From NCBI GenBank assembly GCA_034722955.1, contig JAYEOM010000056.1, forward strand, positions 1-14,953: a stretch of DNA of 14,953 bases. The letters run 5' to 3'. Shown one piece after another: positions 1 to 14,953 of the stretch. Both the position numbers and the translations under genes were made by a program. Each line of letters begins with the position of its first letter. The stretch's first letter is position 1. The stretch is from Campylobacterota bacterium (lineage in GTDB: Bacteria; Campylobacterota; Campylobacteria; Campylobacterales; Sulfurovaceae). The notes beneath the pieces are model-generated. The model ran no database searches. It was not told the DNA's origin and saw only the letters and a list, made by a program, of their open reading frames with translations.

Positions 1-1
1 T

Positions 2-85
2 AGTTTCAAGAAGCGACTGAAAGGTTATAAAGAGATGGGGTATCGCTATGATGAAAGTGGAAAGAGTGAGAATAGGTTGTTTTGA
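2..85 (+). CDS. 3' end (partial) of a probable DEAD/DEAH-box (SF2) helicase
   Basis: Open frame from the window edge reads SFKKRLKGYKEMGYRYDESGKSENRLF* (TGA 83-85). 'KRLKGYxxMGY' resembles the C-terminus of Res-like SF2 helicases, recalled from memory; only 27 aa are visible. Confidence 0.45.
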   Translation, partial: SFKKRLKGYKEMGYRYDESGKSENRLF

Positions 86-204
86 TAATAATGCTTATCG
101 TAGAGATGTCTCTTGAGTTTTGAGTGTAAATATTTTAGTATTAGTATTCAACTCTAATGAGCAGTGAAAAGATATAAGTAAATAATTTCACTATGAAATA
201 TTTC

Positions 205-233
205 TTCCACTTTTATAAAAATTCAACTATAAT
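205..233 (+). promoter_or_regulatory. Putative sigma70 promoter of the R-M operon
   Basis: TTCCAC (205-210), 17-nt spacer, perfect TATAAT (228-233), 27 nt before the ATG at 261. Confidence 0.5.
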
Positions 234-260
234 AAACTTTGAATAACAAAAAGGTTTCGT

Positions 261-1148
261 ATGCAACAAATGCCAATCATTACCCAGATACCACATACAG
301 AACAAAAAGAGTTTGATAACTTGATTAAAAAGTATCGCCAAAAGTATATTCGTAACTCTAAACTTATTGTAGATAGTGTCTATGAAGAGTCAAATAAGTA
401 TCATCAGAGTATATTGGCACAAAATGTAAGTGGAGCGATTCGTGACTTACGAGAAGAGGTTTGGCAACTATATCTTGAGGATGAAGTGACTTTCAATGCT
501 ATATTGATGAGAGAACTTTATCATAAGCTGGAGACACCTCAAAAAATATTGGATACACTTGTCAATGAAGATATTCTAAACAAAAAGGGAGATGACCTCT
601 CTAGCTCTATCAAAGATATCTGTGGAGAGTATGCGGGGCGAGTTTTTCCCTATGTCTATCGTCTCTCATTGAGCAATACACAATCTAGGCGATCTAGAGC
701 AGGAAGTACTTTTGAATCTATAGTTTACAAAATATATGAGAGCTTGGAGTATAGTTACGATTCACAAAAAAAGGTAGGTAGAAAAACCTTTGATGCTTTG
801 GGATTAGGGAAAAAAGTTGATTCTATCTTGCCTAGTGTGGAGTGTTATGAGAAGAGAAGAAACAAAACTATCATAGGAACTATGAAGACCACACTACGAG
901 AGCGATGGCAAGAGGTAGCTGAAGAGATCGAGAGAACAAAGATACCAGAGATACATCTCTTGACATTAGATGAAGATATCTCACTGAACAAAAGCAGAGA
1001 GATGTCTCAACACAATATTATCATAGTGACATATGATTGGGTAGCTCACAAAAAGGAACTTGCAGGTATGAAAAATATCATCAGCTTCGAAGAGTATCTC
1101 TTTGAGGAGCTACCAACCATACAAGAGTATTGGAGAGCAAATGACTAA
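261..1148 (+). CDS. Type II restriction endonuclease, SsoII/Ecl18kI/EcoRII-C-terminal family (probably CCNGG)
   Basis: Motifs QSRRSRAGSTFE, KKVD and MKTTLRERWQEV are the hallmark PD-(D/E)XK motifs of the CCGG family; adjacent to a C5 methyltransferase. Confidence 0.9.
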   Translation: MQQMPIITQIPHTEQKEFDNLIKKYRQKYIRNSKLIVDSVYEESNKYHQSILAQNVSGAIRDLREEVWQLYLEDEVTFNAILMRELYHKLETPQKILDTLVNEDILNKKGDDLSSSIKDICGEYAGRVFPYVYRLSLSNTQSRRSRAGSTFESIVYKIYESLEYSYDSQKKVGRKTFDALGLGKKVDSILPSVECYEKRRNKTIIGTMKTTLRERWQEVAEEIERTKIPEIHLLTLDEDISLNKSREMSQHNIIIVTYDWVAHKKELAGMKNIISFEEYLFEELPTIQEYWRAND

Positions 1149-2094
1149 ATATATGTCAACATCTACAGACAGCATCAAAATCATTGATCTATTTGCTGGG
1201 ATTGGTGGGATTCGGCTAGGGTTTGAACTCGCATCAAACAAGAAGATAGAGTGTGTCTTTAGCAGTGAGTGGAACAAATACTCTCGACAAACATATCAAG
1301 CCAATTTTGGTTTGGAAGAGATCTATGGAGATATCACAGAGGTAGATGAGAATGAAATACCAGCTCATGATATCTTGTTGGCTGGTTTTCCTTGTCAGCC
1401 ATTTTCTCAGGCAGGACTTAAGAGAGGTTTTGATGATATCAGAGGTACACTCTTTTTTGATATTGCTAGGATATTGGAAGCGAAAAAACCAAAAGCTTTT
1501 TTGTTAGAAAATGTCAAACAACTCAGAGGTCATGACAAAGGAAGAACACTTGAAGTAATCATGCAAACATTGAGAGATATAGGATATACCAATGTAGAGT
1601 ACAATCTTCTCAAAGCTAGGGATTTTGGCTTGCCTCAAAATAGAGAGAGGCTATATATCGTAGGTTTTCTTGATGAAGCAGTAGATTTCTCATTTCCAAA
1701 GCCTCTAGCTCTAGAGACAAGAGTGGGTGATATACTAGATGACGAAATAGCTGAAAAGTATACGATATCAGATAGACTATGGGCAGGTCACCAACGACGC
1801 AAACGAGAGAACAGACTCAAAGGGAAAGGGTTTGGTTATAGTATCTTTACCCATGATTCTCCCTATACGAGTACAATATCTGCGAGATATTATAAAGATG
1901 GGAGCGAAATACTCATAGAACAAGATGGCAAAAACCCTAGAAAGATAACCCCTAGAGAGGCTTCGAGACTCCAGGGATTCCCAGAAGATTTCAAGATACC
2001 AGTCTCTGATACACAAGCATATCAGCAGTTTGGCAACAGTGTTCCTGTGAGTGTGATAGAGGCACTAGCGAAGCAGATGTTGATACATCTATAG
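1141..2094 (+). CDS. dcm: DNA (cytosine-5) methyltransferase, M.SsoII/M.ScrFI-like
   Basis: Motif I DLFAGIGG, motif IV GFPCQPFS, motif VI ENV, motif VIII QNRER, motif X FGNSV. The target-recognition region GFGY...TISARYYKDGSEILI is typical of CCNGG/CCWGG enzymes. Start moved to ATG 1141 (overlaps the endonuclease stop); ATG 1153 is also possible. Confidence 0.93.
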   Translation: MTKYMSTSTDSIKIIDLFAGIGGIRLGFELASNKKIECVFSSEWNKYSRQTYQANFGLEEIYGDITEVDENEIPAHDILLAGFPCQPFSQAGLKRGFDDIRGTLFFDIARILEAKKPKAFLLENVKQLRGHDKGRTLEVIMQTLRDIGYTNVEYNLLKARDFGLPQNRERLYIVGFLDEAVDFSFPKPLALETRVGDILDDEIAEKYTISDRLWAGHQRRKRENRLKGKGFGYSIFTHDSPYTSTISARYYKDGSEILIEQDGKNPRKITPREASRLQGFPEDFKIPVSDTQAYQQFGNSVPVSVIEALAKQMLIHL

Positions 2095-2102
2095 CGGTCA
2101 AA

Positions 2103-3986
2103 ATGCTCAAAAAACAGTTCAGTAAAACATCATTGAAATATTGTCAAGATGTAGAGGTGATAGATGAGTGTTGGCAAGAGATAGAGCAGGGTTATAAGGG
2201 TAGACCTTATCACAATCTCAGACATCTTGACGCTCTCTATAAGGAACTCAAAATAGTTAAAGATGATATAGAGGATTGGGATGCTCTCTTTTATGCTCTC
2301 TGTTATCATGATATAGTCTACGATGTCCAAAGAAGTGACAACGAACTCCAGAGTGCCACTCTAGCTAGAGCAAAACTCAAAAACCTCAACCTCCCACCCA
2401 AGATAATAGAACGCATCTCTCAACACATCATCGCAACAAAAGAACATAGTAAAAGTGAAGATAGTGATAGCAATCTTTTGATAGATGCTGATTTGGCTAT
2501 ATTGGGCAGTGGCGATTATGAGTCATATCTGCAAGGTATCCGAGAAGAGTATGCTTGCTATAGTGATAGAGAGTTCTATGAGGGTCGTAGAGTGGCACTA
2601 GAATACTTTTTAATGCAAAAGCAGATATACAAAAGTGCCTATTTTTTTGATAGATATGAGGAGAAGGCTCGATGGAATTTGGAGAGGGAGTTGCAAAGTA
2701 TAGATATGAAAAAGATTATAAAACAAGAGTTCAAAAAATCTATTTGGCTGGGCATAGGAAGAGCCTACTTCCTCCAACAAGAATATCCAGAGATTAATTT
2801 CTCAAAATACATTCTCTATGCCTCACTCTATAACCAAGCGTATGATACACAATCAGAGGGTGATAGAGCTTGGTATCTATGGCAACTAATCAAGTCATCA
2901 CCTCAAAAAGAGAAATTAATTGACAAAATTTTACTAGCACTTAAAAGAGAAAAAGAAGAAAAAGTTTCTCTCTATCAGCTCTTTTCTCTAGCTAAATATT
3001 TTGTACTTGATGGAAATAAAAAAGCTCATAAGATCATATATGATAGATATAAAAAATCTCTAAAACATGGTTGTATTTGGTGTGGAGAATCTGATATCAT
3101 CGAGTTGGATGGTATTGATGGTGTTTTATTTGTCGCCAAGATCTATGGTAAAGCATATATGAAAGATAGTGGATACTATAATAACTCCTCCTATGATATA
3201 AAAGAGTATCAAGAGAAAAATAGGGATATTAATGTTATAAAAATATTGAAAAAAAAGGCAAAAAAGAGTAAAGACCTCAGATTCTATATCAAGCTATTGA
3301 AAGAGGAAGAAAGTAATAAATATATTAGAAAAACAAACCGATATAGTTACAAAACAGTCAAAAAATATATTAGCAAAGGGAGGATAGTAAATCACTTTAT
3401 AAGCAGACATCTAACTCAAAAAGAGATTAGGAAGTTAGCCAAAGATTTTTTGTATGAAAAAGAGTTAAAGAAAAAGGCTCTCTATTTGAGAGTTTTTTGT
3501 GATAGAAAGTTTCCTTATGGATATAAGATTTTAATGTATCTAGCAAAAAATACAAAAGATAGTAATAATAGACTTTTAGAGTATTCATTGTCTGCCTTAA
3601 AGCTGTTTTCATCATCAAAAATTAGAAAGTTTGCACTTGATAAATTATCTTCAACAGATAAACCTGAATACTATGTACCATTATTGATTCGTAACTATAG
3701 AGATGGTGATGAGATATTGTTAGAACAGATTGTTAGTAGATGTGACAATGAGGATGAGATTCATAATTTAGTCTTTGATTATTTAGAGATATATAGAAAC
3801 AACCAAACACCAAAATATCGTAAAATATTTGAGATATTTTATGAAAATATGAATTGTGGAATACATAGATATGATATATTGGATATCCTTGAAGAACAAG
3901 GGGTTCTCTCAGAGAAATTAAAAAGAGAGATGGAGTTTGACAGTAATGAGGAGGTGAGAAGGTTGTTTCAGGAGATTGAAGCCTAG
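2103..3986 (+). CDS. HD-superfamily metal-dependent phosphohydrolase (COG4339-like, N-terminal ~200 aa) fused to a Lys-rich helical domain of unknown function
   Basis: RPYHNLRH, YHDIVYD, DNE..SA, ATKEH, DADLAILG and IREEY motifs in the first 200 aa. An in-frame ATG at 2706 (MKKIIKQEF...) begins a more AT-rich second part. Confidence 0.75.
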   Translation: MLKKQFSKTSLKYCQDVEVIDECWQEIEQGYKGRPYHNLRHLDALYKELKIVKDDIEDWDALFYALCYHDIVYDVQRSDNELQSATLARAKLKNLNLPPKIIERISQHIIATKEHSKSEDSDSNLLIDADLAILGSGDYESYLQGIREEYACYSDREFYEGRRVALEYFLMQKQIYKSAYFFDRYEEKARWNLERELQSIDMKKIIKQEFKKSIWLGIGRAYFLQQEYPEINFSKYILYASLYNQAYDTQSEGDRAWYLWQLIKSSPQKEKLIDKILLALKREKEEKVSLYQLFSLAKYFVLDGNKKAHKIIYDRYKKSLKHGCIWCGESDIIELDGIDGVLFVAKIYGKAYMKDSGYYNNSSYDIKEYQEKNRDINVIKILKKKAKKSKDLRFYIKLLKEEESNKYIRKTNRYSYKTVKKYISKGRIVNHFISRHLTQKEIRKLAKDFLYEKELKKKALYLRVFCDRKFPYGYKILMYLAKNTKDSNNRLLEYSLSALKLFSSSKIRKFALDKLSSTDKPEYYVPLLIRNYRDGDEILLEQIVSRCDNEDEIHNLVFDYLEIYRNNQTPKYRKIFEIFYENMNCGIHRYDILDILEEQGVLSEKLKREMEFDSNEEVRRLFQEIEA

Positions 3987-4002
3987 CTATCTTACTGAGA
4001 AT

Positions 4003-4031
4003 TTTACAGAAAATATAAAACATGCTATAAT
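4003..4031 (+). promoter_or_regulatory. Sigma70 promoter of the toxin-antitoxin operon
   Basis: TTTACA (4003-4008), 17-nt spacer, TATAAT (4026-4031) with an extended -10 TG; GAGGAG ribosome-binding site before ATG 4064. Confidence 0.75.
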
Positions 4032-4063
4032 CATAATTATTGAAATAAACTTGAGGAGTTTAT

Positions 4064-4270
4064 ATGTCGTTAGATGAGATTAAAATGCTTACTGTATCAG
4101 AGCGAATAGTTTTAGTTGAAGAGATTTGGGACACTATCGAGCAAGAACAAAATAGTTTACTATTGTCTAAAGATGAAAAAGCCATATTAGATGAACGACT
4201 AGCTTCACTTGATAACAGTCCTCAAGATACTCTTTCGTGGGATGAGATAAAAAGAAAACTTAGAAGCTAA
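4064..4270 (+). CDS. Addiction-module antitoxin (TIGR02574-like)
   Basis: 68 aa, acidic, with ERIxLVEEIWD...LDERL...SWDEIK pattern; TAATG stop/start overlap with the downstream toxin. Confidence 0.85.
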   Translation: MSLDEIKMLTVSERIVLVEEIWDTIEQEQNSLLLSKDEKAILDERLASLDNSPQDTLSWDEIKRKLRS

Positions 4271-4566
4271 TGTATCCTATAAGTTTCAAATCAGAGGTAT
4301 ATGATGATGTAAAGACTGCCTATGATTGGTATGAGAAACAATATATTGGATTGGGTGAAGATTTTATCTTGATACTTGAAGATACCTATCAAGAGATTAG
4401 TCAATCACCAAAATTATATCAAAAAATTTATAAATCAGTGAGACGGAAATTGATGCGTAAATTTCCCTATGGGATATTTTTTGTGTTGAAAGAAAATCAA
4501 ATTATTGTCATCGCAATTATGCATACAAAACGAAATCCTATGGATTGGAGCAATCGCATAAAATAA
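4270..4566 (+). CDS. Type II toxin, RelE/ParE family
   Basis: 98 aa with AYDWYE..GLGEDF, RRxLMRKFPYGIFF and IAIMHxKRNP motifs; translationally coupled to the antitoxin. Confidence 0.88.
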   Translation: MYPISFKSEVYDDVKTAYDWYEKQYIGLGEDFILILEDTYQEISQSPKLYQKIYKSVRRKLMRKFPYGIFFVLKENQIIVIAIMHTKRNPMDWSNRIK

Positions 4567-4600
4567 GTTTTGTACACTTCTTTAGGCTCATATTGTGAGC

Positions 4601-6838
4601 TCAATCCACCAACAACTGCCCCACCAAAGCAGCATTGATAGCCCACTCTCTGTCGTATATCTCATCAGCTTCTAGTGGCTCTTCTACTAGTTCTAAGCCT
4701 TGGGCTTGGGCTTTGATCTCTAGCAATGTACCTATACTGAGATTGAGTTTACTCTCTAGTTTTGCTAGGAGTGCTTCTACTCCTGCTGAGTCTAGGTTTT
4801 GGACTCTTTGACCTTGGAAGCTCATCTCTATCCAGACTATCTCTGCCTTTTTGACATCTAGTACACCAAAGACCAAGCCTTTGCTCATGTTTTGGGTGAT
4901 GCGTATCTGATGCTGTACGCAGGATGGATCATAGGCGACACCTGTTCTCTTGGAGATTCTCATCTCATTTGCACTCTCCATCCAGCCTACTACTAAGTTG
5001 GGAGAGAGTTCACCCGATGTGTAGGCATTGGCTGTGAAGCTCACATAGTTGGCTCCAAGTTTGTTCAACATGTTGAGATCTATATCTATATACTCTGCTG
5101 TGCCTACTTTGTGTGGGATACTCTGTATATCACCACTATGTTTACACCCTGATATCTGTAGCCTAGAGTATGAACAGCTCTCGACTCTATGACTATAGGC
5201 TACACTACAGCTCAAATCCATATCGAGATGTTGTGCAGGGAGACCCTTGCCCCACTCCATAAAGAGACGCACCGTAGAGCCCTCCACAGTAAACCGACTC
5301 CCCATCAACGCAGATGGTATATCTTGCACCGTCTCTGATCTATCCCCTATCGCTAGTGGCATCTTGTAGAGCATAGGGTCGATATAGAGTGAGCTGTTTT
5401 CACTCTCTATCTCGCTATATCTTCTACTCATCTCATCCAAAAACAGTTGTTCTACCTCTGTTTGCATCTGCTCCAACTCTCTATCCTCATAGAGTGTAAG
5501 TGTTGCATTGGCTGGTATCTTTTTGTGTACTCCACCTAGTGCTTTGACACTTCGTATTTGTGATTTGTCAAAGTAAAATCCACTATAGATACTCAGCGTA
5601 GCCAAAAGTCTCGCTGGTATTTGAGCACTCACCTCTCTAAACTCTCTGAGTGTTTCACTAGAGCCAAACCAGAGCATCGTCGAGAAGAGAGAGCGAGCGA
5701 AAACACTTGGACGCTCTTTGAGCATCTCAAATACTCTCTCCTGATCCATAGCGTATCTCGCTTGGTTGAGTTCACCTTGCCATACACTATAGCGTTGGTT
5801 ATAAAATGTATCCAAGAGTTTGGCTAACTTCTCAAATCCCTTTCTCTTACTATACTCCGCTAGACGCAATGCACGGATGAACCGCACCCATATCTCTCGT
5901 TTTGGGTGCATGAGTTCACAAGATTTTTGGATATTTAGCTTTAGGTCATTGAGCCACTTGGCTACCATCTTGCACTCTGTGCGACTATATTTGAGTTTGA
6001 GATCTTCTCTATATTGGCTCGATTTATCTGCGATATTACGATCAAAATAGTTATCATTTTTGACTCTTCTCTCTACGATAGTTTTAGGCTCAACAAGTTG
6101 CAGTAAACCAGTTTTTTTGTACCATAGATAACGCAATATATCTTGAGGTGAGCCAAAGAGTCTACTAGCCTCTTGACTCTTCTCACTCGCTATCAGCTCA
6201 TCTATGACGAGCATCAGTGTCTCTTTCATCTCTATAGCCACAGTAGGGAGAGCAAAGTGCCGCATCAATATCTGCAAGCTATCTACCTGTGTAGCGTCCA
6301 ATGCTGTCTTGGAGAGGAGTAGGTCTCTCAAAAGAGCAGAGATATCCTTTTCACTATAGAGTTCTAAGACTATGAGTTTGGAGCCTTGACCGAGATAGAT
6401 CTCATCTGACGCATCAAAAGCCATACCACAATATGGACAGCCATTGTATCGCTCTAGTGGGAATGTCCCTTCAGGGATGAAATCCCCACAAGGTAGAGTC
6501 ACTCCTCTACCGTGTGGTAGGAGGTTGGCTATATATGTCCAGATATGGTCTATACTTGACTCACCTGTAGGCGTATCCCAGCCTCGTACGAGTGGCATCC
6601 AGCTCTTATCCACACCCATCACCTCTTTGAGTCTCTCTAGTATGAGCTTCTTCTGCGTGACTGATATCTGATTGATAGCTTGGAGCAGAGACTCTGAGAA
6701 CCCAAACCCTAGCTTAGCTACATTTGCCACGAGCAGAGAGGTGGTGGTATTTATCTTGTACGACTCAGAGAGTTCTCTCTGGGAGTCTATATAGAGTGCA
6801 TTGTTTCTCAATGTTACTTTGATTAACTCTTTTTTCAT
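4601..6838 (-). CDS. Large protein with degenerate prokaryotic RING-like segment, helical middle region and C-terminal TerD-like domain (MXAN_6230/SCO0854-like family)
   Basis: LPCGDFIPEGTFPLERYNGCPYCG in the N-terminal part; TerD-type motifs RLFMEW, DMDLS, HSGDIQS and AEYIDIDL in the C-terminal part. Family name recalled from memory. Confidence 0.75.
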   Translation of the reverse strand: MKKELIKVTLRNNALYIDSQRELSESYKINTTTSLLVANVAKLGFGFSESLLQAINQISVTQKKLILERLKEVMGVDKSWMPLVRGWDTPTGESSIDHIWTYIANLLPHGRGVTLPCGDFIPEGTFPLERYNGCPYCGMAFDASDEIYLGQGSKLIVLELYSEKDISALLRDLLLSKTALDATQVDSLQILMRHFALPTVAIEMKETLMLVIDELIASEKSQEASRLFGSPQDILRYLWYKKTGLLQLVEPKTIVERRVKNDNYFDRNIADKSSQYREDLKLKYSRTECKMVAKWLNDLKLNIQKSCELMHPKREIWVRFIRALRLAEYSKRKGFEKLAKLLDTFYNQRYSVWQGELNQARYAMDQERVFEMLKERPSVFARSLFSTMLWFGSSETLREFREVSAQIPARLLATLSIYSGFYFDKSQIRSVKALGGVHKKIPANATLTLYEDRELEQMQTEVEQLFLDEMSRRYSEIESENSSLYIDPMLYKMPLAIGDRSETVQDIPSALMGSRFTVEGSTVRLFMEWGKGLPAQHLDMDLSCSVAYSHRVESCSYSRLQISGCKHSGDIQSIPHKVGTAEYIDIDLNMLNKLGANYVSFTANAYTSGELSPNLVVGWMESANEMRISKRTGVAYDPSCVQHQIRITQNMSKGLVFGVLDVKKAEIVWIEMSFQGQRVQNLDSAGVEALLAKLESKLNLSIGTLLEIKAQAQGLELVEEPLEADEIYDREWAINAALVGQLLVD

Positions 6839-6860
6839 TGTAAATCCATTTATATTTTAG

Positions 6861-6937
6861 TCGAGGCAATCAATAGACTTTGTTTTTCAGGGTAGGAAAG
6901 TGCCTTTACGGCAGAAGTAAGTCTATTTTGACCTCGA
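6861..6937 (-). ncRNA. Candidate structured RNA, unit 1 of array
   Basis: Minus strand: TCGA-GGTCAAA-ATAGA-CTTACTTC-TGCCGTAAAGGCA-CTTTCCTACCCTGAAAAACA-AAG-TCTAT-TGATT-GCC-TCGA; the two ends pair. Confidence 0.65.
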
Positions 6938-6941
6938 TAGA

Positions 6942-7014
6942 GATGGAAATCAGAGAACTGCGTTTTAATCCAAATAAAATGCCTCTCGGCAGGAGTAAGT
7001 TCTCTTTGTCCATC
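6942..7014 (-). ncRNA. Candidate structured RNA, unit 2 of array
   Basis: Minus strand: GAT-GGACAAA-GAGAA-CTTACTCC-TGCCGAGAGGCA-TTTTATTTGGATTAAAACGC-AG-TTCTC-TGATT-TCC-ATC; same fold as unit 1 with compensatory changes and a GAGA (GNRA) tetraloop. Confidence 0.65.
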
Positions 7015-7020
7015 GTGTAA

Positions 7021-7336
7021 GGCTAACCCAAGGAGATAAGCATCCAAATAGCTTTATGAGGTTTTTCATAGACAAGGCAATCGTTTGCAGGACTAGCCTT
7101 AGCTAATTGCCCGCAGGAAATGCCCTTGGGGTGCAAAAACGATTAACGCAGTATATGGGAAACCTCATAAAGCCCGTAGGGAAGCCACATAGAGGGCAAT
7201 CTTCACAAAATATAATTCTTGCACCCAAGGGCATTTCCTGCGGGCAATTAGCTTTGGCTAGTCCTACGAATTATATTTTGCAAATCTCACCCTCTCTGTG
7301 GCTTCTATTTTGTGTGCTTATCTCCTTGGGCTAGCC
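7021..7336. mobile_element. 316-bp MITE-like non-autonomous element
   Basis: 22-bp terminal inverted repeats GGCTAACCCAAGGAGATAAGCA (7021-7042) and TGCTTATCTCCTTGGGCTAGCC (7315-7336), 21/22 matching; TAA on both flanks (7018-7020, 7337-7339); no transposase. Confidence 0.8.
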
Positions 7337-7337
7337 T

Positions 7338-7421
7338 AAACAGGGGTAATCATATATCTTCTATTCATGTGTGCGACATGGAGAAGGAGTAAGAAGTAAG
7401 GTATATTTGACCTTTCTGTTT
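7338..7421 (-). ncRNA. Candidate structured RNA, unit 3 of array
   Basis: Minus strand: AAACAGAAA-GGTCAAA-TATAC-CTTACTTC-TTACTCCTTCTCCATGTCGCACACATGAATAG-AAG-ATATA-TGATT-ACC-CCTGTTT; same conserved motifs, different interior, one mismatch in the inner stem. Confidence 0.6.
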
Positions 7422-7506
7422 ATGTGGAATATCTCAAAAGTCCTTAGCACATAGACTCTCAAATCAACAAATATTCCAACTCTTTTATTGTTGATAGGAG
7501 AAATAT

Positions 7507-7532
7507 ATAATAATATTTTGACATATTTTGTC
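7507..7532 (-). promoter_or_regulatory. Candidate operator/promoter for the array and the RING-TerD gene
   Basis: Palindrome GACA-N5-TGTC (7520-7532) overlapping ATATTTTG direct repeats 10 bp apart; followed on the minus strand by TATTAT hexamers (7507-7515). Confidence 0.3.
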
Positions 7533-7587
7533 CGATAGAAAAAAGATAGGGGTTTTGTAGTTATAGTTGATATGAGTTATATGAGGT

Positions 7588-7611
7588 CTTCCACCCCAAA
7601 GGGGGCAGAAG
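7588..7611 (-). terminator. Hairpin downstream of the icd remnant
   Basis: Minus strand CTTCTGCCCC-CTTT-GGGGTGGAAG forms a 10-bp stem with two G-U pairs, 9 nt after the remnant's stop; no clear U-tract. Confidence 0.45.
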
Positions 7612-7620
7612 CATCAACAC

Positions 7621-7701
7621 TTAGATGGCATCAATGATAGCATTGTGAGTAGCTGAAGGTCTCATAGCCTTCTCTGCTAGCTCGTCATTTGGATGGAAGT
7701 A
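7621..7701 (-). pseudogene. icd: 3'-terminal fragment of monomeric NADP-dependent isocitrate dehydrogenase
   Basis: Translates as YFHPNDELAEKAMRPSATHNAIIDAI*, matching the conserved monomeric IDH C-terminus (GGYYxP...AMRPSxTxNxIID). An in-frame TAG lies two codons upstream and the rest of the gene is absent. Confidence 0.8.
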
Positions 7702-7741
7702 TACCTATTTTTTACATATATCAAAGGTATGGACTGTCCCT

Positions 7742-8809
7742 CTAAAGAACCTCTACAACGAATTTGGTGATGACAAATCCACCCATAACAAGCCATACAA
7801 ACATTGTGCCTGCGGTATAGATCGGTGCGAGGCCTAAGCCTTTGAACTTGGAGAAGAGTGTTCCCATGCCTAGAGCGGTCATAGCCATAGTGAGCAGGAA
7901 GGTATCGATCTCGTTTATGATATCTACTATATTCTGAGGAGCTAGATGCAGTGAGTTGAAGCCTGCAACCATCACAAAGTAGAGAGCAAACCATGGTATG
8001 ACCAGCTTCATTTTCCCGCTTGCCCCATCACCTGCTTTTTTTGATTGCCAAGTTAGATATACTCCTAGTATGATAAGCATCGGTGCGATCATAATAACAC
8101 GCGTCATCTTGACGATGACTGCTGCATCTGCCATCTCTTTTGGAGAGCTAGGCACAGAGGCAGGCACAGCAACAACTTGTGCAACTTCGTGAATAGTCCC
8201 TCCTACATAGATGCCGAACTCTCTAGTTGTCATATGGAAGAAGCCTGTTGCATTTTCGATGATAGTGGTGTAGAGTATAGGATAGAGGAACATAGAGATA
8301 GTACCAAAGAGTACGACCATCGAGACCGCTACGGCAGTTTTGTACTCCTCTGCTTTGAGTACCGGTTCTGTAGCTAATACTGCAGCGGCACCACAGACTG
8401 ATGCACCAGATGCTGTCAGTATAGAAGTATCTCTATCCATACCAAATACTTTGGTACCGAGCCAGGCACCCAAGATCAGTGTCGATGAGAGCATGATCAG
8501 AGAGACAAGAAATCCATCCATCCCCACCTCCATAATCTCTTGAAAGGTGATGCGAAATCCATAAAAGACAATAGCAAATCTCAGTATCTTTTTTCCAGAA
8601 AATGTGATACCTCCTTGCCAAGCTTGGGGTGTTTGGTTGTGCAGTGTGTTAGCGTATAATATACCAATCACTATACCTATCACCAGGGGTGAAAGCCCCA
8701 GTACTCTGACAGGAGCAAGATCGGCTATGTATGTTGCGGCAGCAGCAAAGATAGCAACAAAAAGGATACCGCTTATGGTGCCTTTTCGTTTTTCTTTTGA
8801 GAAAGACAT
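7742..8809 (-). CDS. yeiH: YeiH-family (UPF0324, putative sulfate/sulfite exporter) membrane protein
   Basis: LRFAIVFYGFRIT, SVCGAAAVLA, GGTIHEVAQVVA and VKMTRV motifs; divergent from a LysR gene. Confidence 0.9.
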   Translation of the reverse strand: MSFSKEKRKGTISGILFVAIFAAAATYIADLAPVRVLGLSPLVIGIVIGILYANTLHNQTPQAWQGGITFSGKKILRFAIVFYGFRITFQEIMEVGMDGFLVSLIMLSSTLILGAWLGTKVFGMDRDTSILTASGASVCGAAAVLATEPVLKAEEYKTAVAVSMVVLFGTISMFLYPILYTTIIENATGFFHMTTREFGIYVGGTIHEVAQVVAVPASVPSSPKEMADAAVIVKMTRVIMIAPMLIILGVYLTWQSKKAGDGASGKMKLVIPWFALYFVMVAGFNSLHLAPQNIVDIINEIDTFLLTMAMTALGMGTLFSKFKGLGLAPIYTAGTMFVWLVMGGFVITKFVVEVL

Positions 8810-8927
8810 AGAAATCCTTCAGTTTTTTTGATAATTAATCTAAAAGTATACTATAAATTTGATATAATATAAAATCAAAATAATCGATTAATATAATCAA
8901 ATTTTATGAATCACGAAAGAGTATACT
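8810..8927. promoter_or_regulatory. Divergent yeiH/yeiE control region
   Basis: Very AT-rich; palindrome TTTGAT-N10-ATCAAA (8858-8879); TATAAT at 8863 and 8892; typical LysR divergent arrangement. Confidence 0.55.
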
Positions 8928-9821
8928 ATGAAATTAACCCTTCGTCAAATAGAGATCTTCCTCAATGTTGTCAGATCTGGTCACTTAACCAATGTTGCCA
9001 AAGAGATGAGCCTTAGTCAATCAGCAGTCTCTATGTCGATAAAAGAGATGGAGAGTATATTGGGTCGACCTGTTTTTGACCGTATCAATAAGAGGTTGAT
9101 CCTCAATGAGGTTGGAAGGGCATTTTACAAAGAGGTCGATCCTCTCTACAAAAAACTCTCTGATATTGAATATGAGTTTAAAAACTCACTCAATAAAGGG
9201 GTGATTCGCGTAGGAGCGAGTACAACAATAGTAGACTATCTCATGCCACCGATCATCTGCAACTATATGAACAATTACCCTGATGTCAAGATCTCACTCA
9301 AAGAGGGGAATAGCAAGGAGATAGTAGATCTGATCAAAAATGGAAATATAGATATAGGTTTTATTGAAGGTGTTGTTACAGATCATGAGATCATATCAGA
9401 GAAGATTGGTATAGATGAGTTGATCGTAGTGACAGCCGACAAGTTACTAGATGAGATCTACTATATTGATTCGCTAGCAGATAAGCGTTGGGTTCTTAGA
9501 GAGGAGGGGAGTGGCACTAGAGAGGTTTTTTTAGACTATATCAAGGAGAGGGTAGACTCATTAAATATCTTTTTGGAATTGGGACATACAGAATCCATAA
9601 AGAGTATCTTGATAAACCATAGCTGCTTGACATGTATCTCCAAGATAGCAGTCAAGAGAGAGATCGAGCAGGAGAGACTCTATCGAGTCAAGCTGCACAA
9701 CTTTAAGTGCAAGAGAGATTTTTTGATGATTTACCATAAAGACAAATACCATAGTGGACTGTTTGAAAAATTTTCATACTTTACTAGAAAAATGATAACT
9801 CAGATGCTTGCTACGGGCTAA
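8928..9821 (+). CDS. yeiE: LysR-family transcriptional regulator, YeiE/CysL-like
   Basis: N-terminal HTH (TLRQIEIF...LSQSAVS...FDR), GASTTI, GFIEG and LREEGSGTRE motifs; paired with yeiH. Confidence 0.88.
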   Translation: MKLTLRQIEIFLNVVRSGHLTNVAKEMSLSQSAVSMSIKEMESILGRPVFDRINKRLILNEVGRAFYKEVDPLYKKLSDIEYEFKNSLNKGVIRVGASTTIVDYLMPPIICNYMNNYPDVKISLKEGNSKEIVDLIKNGNIDIGFIEGVVTDHEIISEKIGIDELIVVTADKLLDEIYYIDSLADKRWVLREEGSGTREVFLDYIKERVDSLNIFLELGHTESIKSILINHSCLTCISKIAVKREIEQERLYRVKLHNFKCKRDFLMIYHKDKYHSGLFEKFSYFTRKMITQMLATG

Positions 9822-9825
9822 GAGT

Positions 9826-10422
9826 CTATCGGACTCCCTTTATATTTTTGAGTGCCTCTTCGTATTCATGAGGATGGTTGAGGTTGCCAAATGGCTTCTC
9901 ATCTTCAAAGAGAACAAAATGGCTCTTTGATGCCTTCAGAAGGGCATTGAGCTTATGGTTATTCTCTGCTATAAAAGTTTTGGCTATAGGGATGATAGAC
10001 TCTCTATAGATACCGCAAAGTGGTTGTCTGCCAGCTGGACTCTCTGCGACAATCGCATCTAGTGTGGAGTCACAGGAGGCATCATAGAGTGCATCAATCA
10101 CACCTTTGTCAACAAAAGGAGCATCTACACTAAGGACAAAACACTCATCTTCACCGATAGTATCAAATATTGAGATGAGTCCTACAAGCGGTGAGCTTTG
10201 GGGATATATATCAAAGATGAGTTCTGAACTAAATCCAAATTTCTGCTCTTTTGTACTGATGTAGACTTTATCAAATAGTTGCTTTAAGCGGTGATACTGG
10301 TACTCCGATAGAGTACTATACTCTCCAAAAGGGAGAAGGGATTTGTCCTCTCCCATTCGAGAGCTTTTGCCTCCGGCGAATATGACAGCAGTAGAGATCT
10401 CTGATCTTGGATTAGGTGACAT
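9826..10422 (-). CDS. mobA: Molybdenum cofactor guanylyltransferase
   Basis: AGGKSSRMGEDK, PLVGL, SVDAPF, QPLCGIY and NLNHP motifs. ATG at 10422 preferred over 10482 because it gives only an 11-nt overlap with the MFS gene. Confidence 0.9.
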   Translation of the reverse strand: MSPNPRSEISTAVIFAGGKSSRMGEDKSLLPFGEYSTLSEYQYHRLKQLFDKVYISTKEQKFGFSSELIFDIYPQSSPLVGLISIFDTIGEDECFVLSVDAPFVDKGVIDALYDASCDSTLDAIVAESPAGRQPLCGIYRESIIPIAKTFIAENNHKLNALLKASKSHFVLFEDEKPFGNLNHPHEYEEALKNIKGVR

Positions 10423-11560
10423 TGGGGTAAGCCTCCGAGGATCGATCTGCTCTTCTGTGTGTCTGCATAAAGAGTGCAGCAAAAGCGAAGAGTGCGATGA
10501 TCGCCTCTATCAAGAACATCGCCTCTCCATATATCTGACCAGCAAGCAGTGCACCGACTGAACCACCTAGACCAAAAGCGATACCTAGAAAAAATTGCTG
10601 TGCCAATCTCTTCTGTTTGTATAGTGTAAAGACATAAGAGATAGCAGCAGTATGATATAGTGCGAAGCTGACGGCATGGAGTGATTGGGAGGCGAATGTC
10701 ATAGGTACTGAGTCAGGGAAAAGGTAGAGAAGAAGCCATCTAAAGGCTGTGATAAGCGTAGCTGCTTTCAAGATATTTAAAAGATTTCTCTGTAGCAGCG
10801 GACCTTGAAAATATAACATAACGATTTCACAAATGACACCAAAGCTCCACATCCAGCTAGTGATCTCCAAGGAGACACCATGAGCTGTTTCATATATAGT
10901 AAAAAAGCTATAAAACCCTCCAAATCCTACCTGCATCAAGAATATGCTGATCCAAAACCATGGATAGAGCATTAGTGAGAAGTTACGATTGTCTTCTGTC
11001 ATCTCCAGGGTAGTGTTGCGGTCATAATAGGCGATCATTACGCCAGAGAGTAGAGTGAGAAGTGCAACTGTAGCCAAATAGTAGAGTGCTTCATATGGTA
11101 GAGAGAGTACTTGACCCAGCCAGATAGCAATCACCATAAAACCTATAGAGCCATAGAGTCGTACCTTTCCATATCGATTTTTGGAGAGTGTATGCAGAGA
11201 GATCGTCTCTACATAGGGTAGAGAGATACCCATAGCTGCACCAAAAAGAAGGTTGGCAGAGAGGTAAGCCCAGAAGTTCTCTACCGTCACCAAAAAGATC
11301 AATGACCCAAAGAGTATAAATATTAGAGAGAGTAGAAAGACCTTATGGTCAAGTGTGATAAAACGCCGAAAGACAAAAGGGATGAGAAAACGCATAAATG
11401 GTGCGGCGGCATATACCACACCCACTTCGGCATTGGTGTAGCCAAAGGAGAGGAGAACTTTTGGCATAAAGATAACATAGATACCCACAAGAGAAAAATA
11501 GAAAAAATAGAAAAGTGCTAGAGGGATCTCTAGAGGAGGAGATAGCCGATTAGATCTCAT
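10412..11560 (-). CDS. MFS transporter (HcaT/MFS_1-like)
   Basis: About 12 hydrophobic segments; YFFYF...FMP, YGKVRLYGSIGF, GVICEI and QSLHA motifs. Confidence 0.85.
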   Translation of the reverse strand: MRSNRLSPPLEIPLALFYFFYFSLVGIYVIFMPKVLLSFGYTNAEVGVVYAAAPFMRFLIPFVFRRFITLDHKVFLLSLIFILFGSLIFLVTVENFWAYLSANLLFGAAMGISLPYVETISLHTLSKNRYGKVRLYGSIGFMVIAIWLGQVLSLPYEALYYLATVALLTLLSGVMIAYYDRNTTLEMTEDNRNFSLMLYPWFWISIFLMQVGFGGFYSFFTIYETAHGVSLEITSWMWSFGVICEIVMLYFQGPLLQRNLLNILKAATLITAFRWLLLYLFPDSVPMTFASQSLHAVSFALYHTAAISYVFTLYKQKRLAQQFFLGIAFGLGGSVGALLAGQIYGEAMFLIEAIIALFAFAALFMQTHRRADRSSEAYPNVT

Positions 11561-11566
11561 CTCCTT

Positions 11567-12073
11567 TTAGGACTTCTCTGTATCGATGAGTACAGTTCCC
11601 GAAAGCAGATCGTGCAGGCATTTTCTATCTCGCCTAAAATATGCCATCATTAACCCGACAATAGTAACAATTGAGATGATCTCAAAGTAGTAACGAAGAG
11701 CAATAGCCAGGGGGTGTGCTTCTCTACCGGTTTTGCTATCTACAAGTCTAATGTTGTAGGCTCTGCACCCCGGTGTCTGTCCACTTTTCCAGAAGAAGAG
11801 AGAGACTACGATAAAGTTAGGGATCAATATGGTTATCCACCCCTCCACTTTGTTCTGAGAAAACTCCTGAAGTCCATCCATCACAAAATAGGCTACAATA
11901 TACATGATGGGCATCAGTAGCATAAAGGAGTCGGTTATGAAAGCTTTGGTTTTGTTACCTATGGAGGCATAGGGCAGCTTATCTTTTCGTTCTATCTTGC
12001 TCTGCTCCTCCCCCGTAGTATAGGGTAGAGGTTTTTTCTGTTTAACATCTCTAAAGCGTCTCTGTTGTGCCAT
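11567..12073 (-). CDS. RDD-family membrane protein
   Basis: AFITD, GQTPG...IRLVD, LRY and LHDLLSGT motifs. Confidence 0.88.
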   Translation of the reverse strand: MAQQRRFRDVKQKKPLPYTTGEEQSKIERKDKLPYASIGNKTKAFITDSFMLLMPIMYIVAYFVMDGLQEFSQNKVEGWITILIPNFIVVSLFFWKSGQTPGCRAYNIRLVDSKTGREAHPLAIALRYYFEIISIVTIVGLMMAYFRRDRKCLHDLLSGTVLIDTEKS

Positions 12074-12092
12074 TAAAAGCTCCTATTTATAA

Positions 12093-12109
12093 ATCTCCTT
12101 GGGGTAGCC
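12093..12109 (-). repeat. Solo copy of the MITE terminal inverted repeat
   Basis: Minus strand TAA|GGCTACCCCAAGGAGAT matches the MITE end GGCTAACCCAAGGAGAT at 16/17; the TAA is the gspF stop codon. Confidence 0.7.
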
Positions 12110-13327
12110 TTATATCTGTGATCCAAGGCTCATACTAAAGATCGGAAGAAGCATCGCTGCTACGATCACCCCGACAACCAAACCGATAAAGAGCATCATA
12201 AATGGTTCTAGCAGGCTGAGCATAAGTTTGAGGCGATCTTCATTCTCCTCTTGGTAGAGTTGAGAGATATTACCCAATATATTGGCAACTTCACTAGACT
12301 CTTCTCCTAGGGCTAGAGCCTGCATAAAGTTGCGTTTTAGGGGTACACCCCTAGATAGCTGTAGAGCATTGGAGAGTCTGTTACCCTCCAAGACCTTCTT
12401 GGAAGCATCCTCAAAGAGTGCTCTCAATGCACTATTGTTAAATGTAGTTGCCGCTAGCTGTACACCCTGTGCATAAGATACACCAGAGCTAAGCATAAGG
12501 GATAAAATATAGCTAAATCTCCCTAACTCATAATTTTGAATAAGTACTCCAATGATAGGCATTTTTAGCATAACCGTATCGATACTTTTTTTAAAATAAC
12601 CACTCTTTTTGTATGAGAGCTTGAACCCAATAATCATCAAAGCCAAAATGACCAATATCGCGATATAGTGTTCAATGAGAAAATCACTAGTGTTTAAGAC
12701 AAACTGAGTGATAGGGGGGAGCTCCTGTCCTGTATCTTTGAAGATACCAGTGATCTTGGGTACAACAAAAGCGATCAAAAATCCACTCATACCTATAGCT
12801 ACGATAAAGATAAAGAGGGGATAAGCCATCGCATTTCCAACCTGTTTTTTGATCTTGCTCTGTGCAGAGAAGAAGTTACCCATATTGGTCAAGACCTCTA
12901 CCATTTTGCCACTTTGACCAGCGATATTGATACTCTGAAGGAAAAAGTCAGGCAGTGCATAGACTTTCTGGGTATTTAGTGCGATATATAGAGACTTTCC
13001 CTCATCTATCATGGTCTTGATAGCACCTAGGAAATCACTATATCGCTTCTCATCTTGATGCTGGTTTTCTAGTAGTTTGATAGCAGTGATGACAGTCATA
13101 CCAGAGTTGAGGTATGAGGAGAGCTCTTTGGAGAAACTACTGAGTATGGGACCGGGCATTTGTCTTTTCGAGAAAGCCTCCATAGATAGCTTCTGTGTAG
13201 GCAGAAGTGTTTGGTAGTAGATCGATTGAGTGCGAAGTTTCTGCTTCGCCTCTTTGATACTGCTAGCGGTGATGGTTCCCTTGACACTCTTGCCTGAATG
13301 GTCAACGCCTTTATATTTAAAAAGCAT
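12110..13327 (-). CDS. gspF: Type II secretion / type IV pilus inner-membrane platform protein (GspF/PilC family)
   Basis: Two T2SSF repeats (EGKSL..AL, AMAYP, VVPKI...ELPPITQ, GEES, LLEP, MLLPIF); 405 aa. Confidence 0.9.
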   Translation of the reverse strand: MLFKYKGVDHSGKSVKGTITASSIKEAKQKLRTQSIYYQTLLPTQKLSMEAFSKRQMPGPILSSFSKELSSYLNSGMTVITAIKLLENQHQDEKRYSDFLGAIKTMIDEGKSLYIALNTQKVYALPDFFLQSINIAGQSGKMVEVLTNMGNFFSAQSKIKKQVGNAMAYPLFIFIVAIGMSGFLIAFVVPKITGIFKDTGQELPPITQFVLNTSDFLIEHYIAILVILALMIIGFKLSYKKSGYFKKSIDTVMLKMPIIGVLIQNYELGRFSYILSLMLSSGVSYAQGVQLAATTFNNSALRALFEDASKKVLEGNRLSNALQLSRGVPLKRNFMQALALGEESSEVANILGNISQLYQEENEDRLKLMLSLLEPFMMLFIGLVVGVIVAAMLLPIFSMSLGSQI

Positions 13328-13466
13328 TCTGCTCCTATACCTATGTTAAGTTTATATATTAGGTATTTAATGATTTATATTGAAGACCACTAGCTACTGG
13401 TATTCAGAGCTATCCATATATTTAGGAAGCTATTCAAGGTCTCTAGTCTTAGAGAATTTTACAACT

Positions 13467-13563
13467 AGAGACCTTTTAGACACCTGAGCTTTACTTAATG
13501 ATATGAATATGTTACTAGATGTGGCATAGATAGGTGAAACAAGGAGTTGTCTAAAAGTGCTCT
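13467..13563. repeat. 97-bp segment bounded by imperfect 19-bp inverted repeats (possible mini-MITE)
   Basis: AGAGACCTTTTAGACACCT (13467-13485) versus the reverse complement of 13545-13563, AGAGCACTTTTAGACAACT, 16/19 matching. Confidence 0.45.
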
Positions 13564-13623
13564 TGATAAAGGAGAGTATTATAACTCTCTTTCGATAGAG
13601 TTCAAGATAGAGATAGGAGTATA

Positions 13624-14733
13624 ATGGTAAAAAAAACAGATCTACACCCTTTTATTGTCTTTGCAATAATAATATTTTATGCATTTATTGAAGGCTTTAG
13701 AATGCCAAACCTTTGGTCAATCAACTATTATCTGCCGAGCTTTTTTGATGGCTTTTATCGACGAGCATTAATTGGAACAATATTAAGCTTTTTGGGTGAC
13801 TTGAGATTTAATTACTATACGATTGCAGTAGTACAGTTTTCCGTTCTAATCTCATTGATAGTATGGATCTACTATTTTTTTCAGAAAAATATTTTGATGA
13901 TGTTGGTCATTTCACTCTACCTAGTATCGCCTGCTGGAGCATATATATTTCATGAAGTAGGCTATATTGATCAACTGTTGTACTTGGTATTGTTCATTTC
14001 AATCTCTATATTTAAAAAACATAAAACTCTTAGTATAATACTATTTAGCAGCTCAATACTCATACATGAGTTAACCCTATTTGTTACTCTCCCGATCTAT
14101 TTTACATATTTATATTTGTCAACAGACGACTTAAGAAAATCTATTTTATACACTTTGCCTTCAATCACTCTCTTTTTGATTATTTATATTTTTTTTCAAA
14201 CAGTTCCAGAGGATAGAGTAGAACTCTTTATGGAGAATATTTCAAATTTTTCCAATTATGGATTACGAAGTGACTTTTATACAGTCTTTACAAATACATT
14301 TACTGGGTCAAGAAATAAAAGTTACTACTACTTAAATAGTCTAAATCAAATCCTGCTACTGCTCTCTGTGGCAAGCTTAACATCTTTGATTGTTTACACA
14401 GTAAGTAAAAAACAGATACTGTTATCACTATTGGTTCTCTTAGTTGGACTTTCGCCATTGGCTTTAGGGTTTTTTGGTTGGGATCCATATAGATGGTACT
14501 TTTTAAGTCTATCATCACTCACTACAATATTTGTAGTTGTACTTTTGCATTATAAAATTACTGTTACTGAAATAGCATCCATGCAATCAGTTGCTGTTTT
14601 ATATTTTATATTTTATATTTTATTGATTTCAAATATCTATCTAGGATATTTTGATGGATACAAACATAGACATTTGACTATCAATTCAATAGAAAAAGTG
14701 AAAATTGAATTTATGAAAATTCCTAATAGATAA
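13624..14733 (+). CDS. Polytopic membrane protein of unknown function (possible GT-C-type or surface-glycan-modifying enzyme)
   Basis: 369 aa, about 10 hydrophobic segments with conserved-looking polar motifs (GFYRRALIG, GYID, IHE, GWDPYRW); AGGAG ribosome-binding site; visibly more AT-rich than its neighbours. Confidence 0.7.
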   Translation: MVKKTDLHPFIVFAIIIFYAFIEGFRMPNLWSINYYLPSFFDGFYRRALIGTILSFLGDLRFNYYTIAVVQFSVLISLIVWIYYFFQKNILMMLVISLYLVSPAGAYIFHEVGYIDQLLYLVLFISISIFKKHKTLSIILFSSSILIHELTLFVTLPIYFTYLYLSTDDLRKSILYTLPSITLFLIIYIFFQTVPEDRVELFMENISNFSNYGLRSDFYTVFTNTFTGSRNKSYYYLNSLNQILLLLSVASLTSLIVYTVSKKQILLSLLVLLVGLSPLALGFFGWDPYRWYFLSLSSLTTIFVVVLLHYKITVTEIASMQSVAVLYFIFYILLISNIYLGYFDGYKHRHLTINSIEKVKIEFMKIPNR

Positions 14734-14746
14734 GAGAAACAATGAG

Positions 14747-14783
14747 AGTATATGGAAAACCTCATAAAGCCCATAGGGAAGCC
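14747..14783 (+). repeat. 37-bp dispersed copy of an internal MITE segment
   Basis: AGTATATGGAAAACCTCATAAAGCCCATAGGGAAGCC matches 7150-7186 at 35/37. Confidence 0.85.
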
Positions 14784-14802
14784 TAAAGTTTTTTACAACA
14801 TC

Positions 14803-14952: not shown

Positions 14953-14953
14953 T

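Follow-up and report, generated by a model that had tools for sequence, protein, structure and literature searches.

An Undescribed, Structurally Conserved RNA Family Linked to a Family of Proteins with RING-Like and TerD Parts

A stretch of 14,953 nucleotides (nt) from a Campylobacterota bacterium of the Sulfurovaceae (GenBank assembly GCA_034722955.1, contig JAYEOM010000056.1, positions 1 to 14,953; hereafter the window) carries three small inverted-repeat units directly upstream of a gene for a 745-amino-acid protein, P0001, with RING-like and TerD parts. The units belong to an undescribed RNA family whose structure is conserved, and which is linked exclusively and co-directionally to one protein family across phyla. 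The RNA array and the gene look like a self-contained two-part module. We favor, at a probability of roughly 55%, the reading that the units are processed RNA partners bound through a common handle in a particle resembling that of Ro60 and its Y RNAs.

The Array in the Window

A first-pass annotation, made from the sequence alone, had placed three minus-strand units upstream of the gene. A covariance model (R1) recovers all three with a shift of a few bases, and finds no further match in the window better than E 0.9. The units and the gene are as follows.

6861-6937, minus strand: RNA unit 1 (R1 56.2 bits, E 7.7e-12; member of the seed alignment, A3)
6941-7015, minus strand: RNA unit 2 (R1 62.9 bits, E 1.9e-13)
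7341-7416, minus strand: RNA unit 3 (R1 40.4 bits, E 4.8e-08; outside the seed)
4601-6838, minus strand: gene for the 745-amino-acid protein P0001 (open reading frame, ORF)

Unit 1 consists of an outer stem P1 (UCGAGGU/GCCUCGA), an internal loop CAA/GAUU and an inner stem P2 (AAUAGACU/AGUCUAUU), then UUACUUC and an interior with a GCC-GUAAA-GGC hairpin. Unit 2 repeats this plan with P1 GAUGGA/UCCAUC, the same internal loop, P2 AGAGAACU/AGUUCUCU, UUACUCC and a GCC-GAGA-GGC hairpin, and in both units the GCC-loop-GGC hairpin is followed by a U-rich..GG..AAAAC stretch. Unit 3 has GGUCAA, P2 AUAUACCU/AGAUAUAU with one mismatch, and UUACUUC; its outer stem is weak, and its orthologue in the closest relative (locus L009, 86% protein identity) lies at L009:518-594 and scores 44 bits with R1. 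The GAGA loop of unit 2, which is of GNRA type, a U-G pair in unit 1 and a gap of 22 nt between unit 1 and the ATG at 6838, all remarked on in the first pass, are confirmed. The folds of units 1 and 2 are much stronger than those of their shuffled counterparts (z -5.06 and -3.92, respectively; 0 of 200 shuffles equaled either). A 65-amino-acid ORF across units 1 and 2 (6850-7047, minus strand) was considered as coding and rejected, as the corresponding stretch of L009 shows indels of 1 and 3 nt along with compensatory changes in the stems.

Over the 2.51-Mb genome (140 contigs), the pattern GGWCAAA-N5-CTTACTYC is found three times, each time at this array, and R1 run over the same genome returns the same three units alone (150 of 1,516 first-look candidates scored). 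In five further whole genomes, 12 of 12 R1 hits fall at the homologous locus (150 candidates scored per genome). The motif is thus not scattered in the manner of repetitive extragenic palindromic (REP) elements, an outcome that the first pass had named as damaging to its proposal. Readings of the array as REP elements, as attC sites or as clustered regularly interspaced short palindromic repeats (CRISPR) were rejected because of their anatomy and distribution; the units are hairpin-type elements of ~53-94 nt without alternating spacers, and hence, as first judged, not CRISPR-like.

A Common Handle Supported by Covariation

The consensus refined from 76 distinct units reads P1(7 bp)-CAA-N7-UUACUYC-interior-A-N7'-NAUU-P1', where the 5' strand of P1 ends in GGW and the 3' strand, P1', begins with AYC. 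What the units have in common is therefore a handle made up of these GGW/AYC ends of P1, a 3x4 internal loop with CAA opposite NAUU, an 8-base-pair P2 that covaries and is free in sequence, and a single-stranded UUACUYC. In this refined form the covarying stem of the earlier consensus is lengthened from five to eight pairs; the pair 19-63 is unpaired in 26 of 31 units and is not a real pair, which leaves P2 with eight. Positions G5, G6, A9, A10, U18-U22 (UUACU), A100 and C115 are invariant in 76 of 76 distinct units. Nearly so are W7, C8 (75 units), Y23, C24 (75), A110 (72), U111 (75) and U112 (72).

Covariation was counted in two alignments, one of 31 units aligned by MAFFT (A3, from which R1 was built) and one of 76 distinct rows drawn from the 150 best R1 hits (A4). 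For the 16 proposed pairs, 89.9% of the cells in A3 are paired, compared to 57.0% in shuffles, and none of 500 shuffles reached as high; double changes number 158 against 46.6 in shuffles, and partners slid out of register pair in 36-49%. The corresponding values for A4 are 86.6% against 58.9% (again 0/500), 336 double changes against 106, and 34-53% for slid partners. Both sides change in twelve pairs. Covariation, first noticed in three units, lies far above both kinds of control. Simpler tests, by complement and swap controls, point the same way: 48/81 against 227/1620 with all seven of seven pairs, 29/81 against 20/1620 with Watson-Crick pairs only, and 68/138 against 122/1287 full structures. 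These are significant but noisy because many units are related, and we rely on the covariance-model counts instead. Column identity between units is 54-67%, and the interiors differ.

At one P1 pair, 49 units have GC and 27 have GU, consistent with an RNA made from the gene strand, and over all pairs GU outnumbers AC by 67 to 31. The strand assignment draws mainly on this GC/GU pair, together with the asymmetric invariant elements and the co-orientation with the gene.

Linkage of the RNA Family to One Protein Family

Homologous loci were taken from six named genomes and from the best 80 of 521 metagenome matches. Homologues 57-62% identical to P0001 occur in Flavobacterium, Tenacibaculum, Aquimarina and Sulfurovum, and the gene is sporadic, being present in 2 of 41 relatives of this genome and in 8 of 301 Bacteroidota genomes. 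R1 is positive at 84 of the 86 homologous loci, so that homologous genes do carry such units, as the first pass had required of its proposal; the two negative loci (L011 and L057) have just 41 and 44 nt of upstream DNA. At E <= 0.01 the model gives 198 hits in 87 sources, 100% of them on the gene strand. A scan with a looser motif (G-W-CAA, 6-8 nt, U(U)AYUYC) gave 265 occurrences upstream on the gene strand, as against two inside genes, three downstream and three on the opposite strand, and the motif is present at 81 of the 83 loci that have at least 300 nt of upstream DNA. By motif count an array holds one to eight units, most commonly two or four, and the last unit mostly begins 75-98 nt before the start codon. 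At two of the loci (L008 and L010), and at two more distant ones described below, units lie downstream of the gene. Neighboring genes are not conserved between homologous loci.

Variable Interiors and tRNA-Like RNAs

Elsewhere the interiors, inspected by eye, consist of a short D-loop-like UUUUGGUAAAAC, a T-arm (GGUUCGAAUCC) or longer combinations, and some Bacteroidota units carry T-arms. The Rfam tRNA model matches L004:3790-3910 with 54.6 bits and a 57-nt insert, and it matches L003, the Flavobacterium locus, with 39.3 bits. When 20 diverse loci were scanned at the gathering level, 15 tRNA hits were obtained, of which 12, in 10 of the 20 loci, are elongated (93-136 nt) by an insert of ~54 nt at the anticodon loop, and one is a canonical tRNA outside an array; the four Campylobacterota-type loci had no tRNA hit. 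The tRNA-like RNAs of relatives score 34.8-64.9 bits with RF00005 and have canonical acceptor, D and T arms. They differ from tRNA in that the anticodon loop is replaced by the handle, held there in circularly permuted form: the 3' strand of P2, AAUUAYC, a short capped P1, GGUCAA, the 5' strand of P2 and UUACUUC. Neither in the window nor in seven homologous loci does ARAGORN call a tRNA or a tmRNA.

Canonical tRNA-Phe(GAA) genes lie inside two arrays (L014:1264-1335, 70.0 bits; L074:1268-1339, 70.6 bits). The UUC of the invariant UUACUUC is complementary to the anticodon of tRNA-Phe(GAA), which may be a coincidence.

Distant Relatives and Phages

Relatives 22-25% identical over nearly their full length were found by tblastn on plasmids of Variovorax, Bacillus mycoides and Clostridium perfringens; those in Streptomyces are annotated as the SCO0854 family, and phage relatives occur in Salicola phage SCTP-2 and Rhodococcus phage Weasels2. 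In Weasels2, where the identity is 24% and covers 56% of the query, the gene comes after a tRNA cluster (Lys, Ile, Phe, Asn) and is itself followed directly by four R1 units (L110 3782-4139; 29.8, 37.1, 12.2 and 35.8 bits), three of them significant and the fourth match (12.2 bits) weak. The third unit there combines P1, P2, a V hairpin, a T-arm, a closed acceptor-like hairpin and a D-arm (folding free energy -41.7 kcal/mol, z -3.5), and its interior weakly matches the YrlA model (26.4 bits, E 0.17; gathering 69). On a viral contig, a relative with 41% identity is preceded by a unit (49.1 bits) whose end lies 20 nt ahead of the start codon. In L113, a Bacteroidota relative with 27% identity, the stop codon is immediately followed by two variant units in tandem (1541-1696, minus strand; R1 E 0.0097 and 0.034). 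These keep UUACUUC and the covarying stems, but a CUAUC loop replaces CAA.

On plasmid 2 of Variovorax sp. WDL1 (L106), rtcR (1-1073) lies 1.3 kb upstream of a 24%-identical homologue, on the other strand. R1 finds nothing significant beside this homologue; two candidate units with GCCUUCCUUCUAA were picked out by eye after the gene (5018-5160), one of which folds with z -3.8 and the other not. A TATAAT box and a terminator hairpin stand beside these candidate units.

The Partner Protein

P0001 has thousands of homologues. No Pfam family matches it above threshold, PADLOC has no model for it, and a search of PDB sequences returned nothing. NCBIfam NF041916, the MXAN_6230/SCO0854 RING family, matches residues 10-681 with 117.7 bits (E 4.8e-34), which is far below the 600-bit equivalog cut-off of that family and makes P0001 part of a separate, related subfamily. 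Its parts, in order along the protein, are the following.

6404-6502, minus strand: zinc-ribbon or Prok-RING_4-like segment (residues 113-145; C117-x-H119...C134-P-x-C137-G)
5399-6346, minus strand: all-helical repeat domain (residues ~165-480), a candidate TROVE-like ring
4766-5290, minus strand: TerD-fold domain (residues 517-691; SGD signature)

The description of the gene as RING/TerD in the first pass holds, in that P0001 has a Prok-RING_4-like part and a TerD part. Prok-RING_4 (PF14447) matches P0001 with 15 bits (E 0.023), short of the gathering score of 27 bits, and is found at E <= 0.1 in 27 of 56 diverse relatives (best 1.7e-05). The C-x-H...C-P-x-C-G residues are invariant in an alignment of 20 homologues (A2); as only these four conserved zinc ligands are seen, the segment is called RING-like rather than a full cross-brace RING. 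An AlphaFold model of P0001 has a predicted local distance difference test (pLDDT) score of 75.7, with low confidence at the zinc-ribbon segment. The TerD part of the model matches 3ibz in Foldseek (7e-04) and qualifies as TerD (PF02342), and the TerD profile matches 11 of the 56 relatives at E <= 0.1. With the whole model as query the TerD part alone was matched, the other rows being long, low in TM score and meaningless.

A profile of the helical domain recovers at least 500 protein clusters at 50% identity. Folded alone, the domain is modeled with a pLDDT of 86, and when this model was compared by VIA-align with 48,161 PDB representatives, Ro60 chains ranked first, second and fourth, each spanning most of the domain, while the other rows cover ~100 residues. 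The three rows are given with the values returned.

Rank 1: 9l5y_B, Thermus phage Ro60; 9.1, 5.2, 253
Rank 2: 2nvo_A, Deinococcus Rsr; 8.2, 4.8, 262
Rank 4: 1yvp_A, Xenopus Ro with RNAs; 7.1, 7.7, 274

Other searches speak against a TROVE relationship. Foldseek returned nothing for the helical domain at E <= 0.001, matches in the ESM Atlas were confined to the protein's own family and the SCO0854 family (TM score 0.70), and hhalign against nine Bacteroidota TROVE proteins gave a probability of 0.4%, or 0.2% with the 56-sequence alignment. Pfam TROVE (PF05731) has no match in P0001 even at E <= 10, nor in any of the 56 relatives at E <= 0.1, and no C-terminal von Willebrand factor A (vWA) domain, which closes the ring in Ro60, was found in P0001. 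We put the odds that the modeled helical domain is a TROVE-like ring at roughly even, and regard the resemblance as a lead rather than a finding. TROVE genes themselves were found neither in this genome nor in any of the 151 genomes searched of its phylum.

The literature searched records no function or RNA partner for NF041916 or for the P0001 subfamily, and nothing in it links RING/TerD proteins with RNAs; one review of jumbo phages names TROVE, TerD and Y RNA separately.

Genomic Neighborhood

Several further features accompany the array and its gene in the window.

7016-7340 (about 326 bases), no strand assigned: repeat resembling a miniature inverted-repeat transposable element (MITE), between units 2 and 3 and outside the system
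261-1148: EcoRII-C-like restriction nuclease, overlapping a C-5 cytosine (Dcm) methylase at 1102-2094
2103-3986: 627-amino-acid protein of no family
4064-4566: ParE-like toxin and antitoxin

BLAST with the MITE-like repeat returns ~100 hit lines spread over many contigs of the genome; full-length copies (~318 bp, 85-90% identical) lie on contigs C10, C29, C134 and C49. The repeat carries internal inverted repeats. L009 lacks it, and the three units there are contiguous, in keeping with the first-pass view that a MITE had interrupted an otherwise close-set array.

The nuclease and the methylase form a type II restriction-modification (R-M) pair. The window further holds housekeeping-type genes, and an ORF of 369 amino acids (13624-14733) matches no Pfam, NCBIfam or PADLOC family. 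The earlier description of the surroundings as a defense island is only partly borne out: the R-M pair and the ParE-like toxin-antitoxin pair lie nearby, but neighbors are not kept from one homologous locus to the next. Genes for WYL-WCX regulators lie at L004:2540-3550 (minus strand), divergent and just upstream of the array, and at L003:227-1375 (minus strand), further upstream. A gene of the AbiV type with a HEPN domain (L003:6320-6949) directly follows the Flavobacterium homologue.

Comparison with Ro60 and Other Known Systems

Chen et al. (2014; PMC4201824) describe the genes of bacterial Y RNAs as neighbors of rsr on the same strand, in more than 250 species as well as in phages; the RNAs may come from one precursor that is cut, in Deinococcus together with a tRNA. 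Their 5' motif GNCGAA(N)G is described there as resembling the GGUCCGA that Xenopus Ro60 contacts mainly through the 5' strand, and the arrangement of the T, acceptor-like and D arms relative to the RNA ends as differing between YrlA and Yrn1 (PMC4201824). Measured against that account, the Ro60 systems (YrlA/YrlB and Yrn1/Yrn2; RF02553, RF01053) share with ours one to several RNAs beside the gene and on its strand, sometimes together with a tRNA, and the 5' motifs, GGUCAA (GGWCAA) here and GNCGAA(N)G or GGUCCGA there, are similar without being identical. Likewise in both, a long stem is formed from the two ends of the RNA, P1 in our case with covariation; a second module can mimic tRNA in the order T, closed acceptor and D, here in relatives only and not in the window's units; the placement of this tRNA-like part relative to the ends varies; and both occur in phages, with rtcR near one distant homologue of P0001.

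The differences are as clear. P0001 is not recognizable as TROVE by sequence, it has TerD in the place of vWA, and it has an added N-terminal zinc-ribbon or RING-like part. The RNAs have their own handle (CAA/NAUU and UUACUYC) and adjoin a co-oriented gene that is not TROVE by Pfam. The comparison with Rfam models of Y RNA and YrlA that the first pass had proposed found no match for the units: nothing in the window reaches gathering in Rfam 15 or gives a meaningful match at E <= 10, and in 6700-7700 no Y-type model (RF00019, RF02553, RF01053) matches at E <= 10. As a control, nine TROVE genes were found in 9 of 121 Bacteroidota genomes searched. YrlA or Deinococcus-Y matches at E <= 0.1, all below gathering, occur at seven of these nine Ro60 loci, and an R1 hit at E <= 0.1 at none, which indicates that each of the two protein families has its own RNA family. 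Y-type matches at the Bacteroidota Ro60 loci L089-L095 score 28-47 bits, compared to gathering scores of 69-80, and annotation by Rfam would miss them. Given the lack of an Rfam match, a partner that is not TROVE, TerD in place of vWA and a motif that is only similar, we class the system as Ro60/Y-RNA-like in its working rather than as a member of that family.

The nearest protein relatives, of the NF041916 and Prok-RING_4 families, share the architecture of P0001 along 672 of its 745 residues, and Prok-RING_4 and TerD parts are common among them. No R1 units were found beside a Streptomyces member.

What the Units May Be

Transcription, processing, binding and a physiological role of the units are what we infer. 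If the units are indeed partner RNAs of a Ro60/Y-RNA-like particle, the array would be transcribed with or beside the gene and then cut into units, probably by tRNA-processing enzymes where tRNA-like parts exist. The protein would bind the handle via its helical, possibly Ro60/TROVE-like domain, with TerD occupying the place of Ro60's vWA domain, and the interiors would recruit or mimic tRNA-recognizing factors, so directing the complex to functions in RNA surveillance, repair or conflict. The analogy with Ro60 and Y RNAs had already been drawn in the first pass, and it has gained from the tRNA-like and YrlA-ordered interiors in relatives, the GGUCAA motif, the Ro60 fold matches and the rtcR gene near the Variovorax homologue.

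A number of observations weigh against this reading. The seeds of A3 were picked for at least six of seven pairs per stem, a selection bias, and A4 was fitted to the model, so that the covariation counts of both alignments favor the structure; many of the 80 metagenome loci are moreover near-identical gut sequences (76 distinct units among 150 aligned). When the GC/GU pair is left out, the 40 GU pairs barely exceed the 31 AC pairs. Unit 3 folds poorly (z -1.80, equaled by 11 of 200 shuffles), and by the Rfam search the window's three units have no tRNA-like part. Y-type models of Rfam gave no match at E <= 1 in six loci, nor at gathering in 20 loci. R1 finds nothing significant beside the homologues of Bacillus mycoides, Clostridium perfringens, Salicola phage SCTP-2, Streptomyces halstedii and genome G315, and a search for RNA sequencing runs containing the stretch listed none, with one coded run sharing 0.11 of its words.

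The units could instead be cis-acting leader elements of the gene's own mRNA, autoregulatory sites or attenuators, and not separate RNAs. They stand on the gene strand, the last of them starting ~75-98 nt and ending ~20 nt before the start codon, and no terminator-like site was found between array and gene on the minus strand of the window. A promoter-like TAnnTTTG box, noticed by eye immediately ahead of the first unit in Bacteroidota, suggests that array and gene are probably one transcript. (Repeated CTGCGCA words were also seen by eye ahead of the first unit in these loci, along with the box. The window has a weak sigma-70-like promoter match with 9 of 12 consensus positions at 7507-7534, minus strand, ~90 nt upstream of unit 3; such matches barely exceed shuffle expectation, with 12 found and 7.3 expected.) The leader explanation nevertheless seems unlikely to us. 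Units follow the gene in L008, L010, Weasels2 and L113, their copy number runs from one to eight, and their interiors are modular and diverse beyond the need of a single regulatory function; arrays also hold processing substrates, in the form of complete tRNA-like RNAs and canonical tRNA-Phe genes. Nor are leader and partner exclusive, as a Ro60-type protein can bind RNAs that have been processed out of its own precursor.

Type III toxin-antitoxin systems consist of near-identical short tandem RNA repeats preceding an endoribonuclease toxin. By analogy, the array could supply RNA inhibitors of a harmful protein, as an antitoxin or a defense switch, in place of a Ro60-like quality-control particle. 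Like ToxIN and its kind, our system places small RNAs in tandem right next to a protein gene, in neighborhoods that are mobile or defense-like. It has the sporadic, horizontal-looking spread noted above (2/41 relatives, 8/301 Bacteroidota genomes, 57-62% identity across phyla) and occurs on plasmids and in phages, and R-M and ParE-like genes in the window, AbiV in L003 and WYL genes in L003 and L004 fit this picture. The units, however, are 53-94 nt long, modular and divergent, with differing interiors, and are not near-identical short repeats. Family searches found no nuclease or other toxic domain, endoribonucleases included, in P0001 or its relatives, PADLOC does not match the protein, and simple inhibition leaves the tRNA-like interiors unexplained. 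We consider an inhibitor array as unlikely as the leader explanation.

That the units act as DNA, as protein-binding palindromes, recombination sites or decayed ends of mobile elements, is suggested by the imperfect inverted repeat in each and by the MITE inserted within the array. It is very improbable given that 198 of 198 model hits lie on the gene strand, that one pair alternates between GC and GU without ever showing its reverse-strand counterpart, that the invariant CAA and UUACUYC are asymmetric and unpaired, that units are not found elsewhere in six genomes (150 candidates scored in each), and that the embedded T- and D-arms are RNA features. Least credible of all are tRNA-gene relics or functionless chance hairpins, since, even if some relatives' units score with the tRNA model, ARAGORN sees no tRNA and the handle is conserved between phyla with compensatory changes and always linked to one protein family.

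Implications

The partner-RNA reading can be carried further, and we do so tentatively, thinking it rather less than probable in its full form. The locus may represent a second, previously unrecognized lineage of Ro60-like ribonucleoproteins, in which a zinc-ribbon/helical-ring/TerD protein would read a universal handle and one to eight changeable adaptor RNAs, from bare hairpins to complete tRNA mimics with the handle for an anticodon loop, would bait or recruit tRNA-recognizing enzymes. Such a particle might sense or repair attack on translation, for example by phage or by the nucleases of rivals, which would explain a sporadic, horizontal spread on plasmids and phages and beside R-M, Abi, WYL and RtcR genes.

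To our knowledge, apart from Ro60 and its Y RNAs no bacterial protein with modular adaptor RNAs that mimic tRNA has been well studied, and even the biology of Ro60 is still little understood. The present locus suggests that a parallel system exists, built on another protein architecture and with an RNA family of its own, absent from Rfam 15; this system spans Campylobacterota, Bacteroidota (gut bacteria included), plasmids and at least one actinophage. If the partner-RNA reading is true, a large family of "hypothetical RING/TerD" proteins would gain a testable function, and hundreds of unannotated small RNAs would be defined, including tRNA-like genes missed by tRNA finders. Comparison of the two systems could then show which features of handle and tRNA mimic such particles need.

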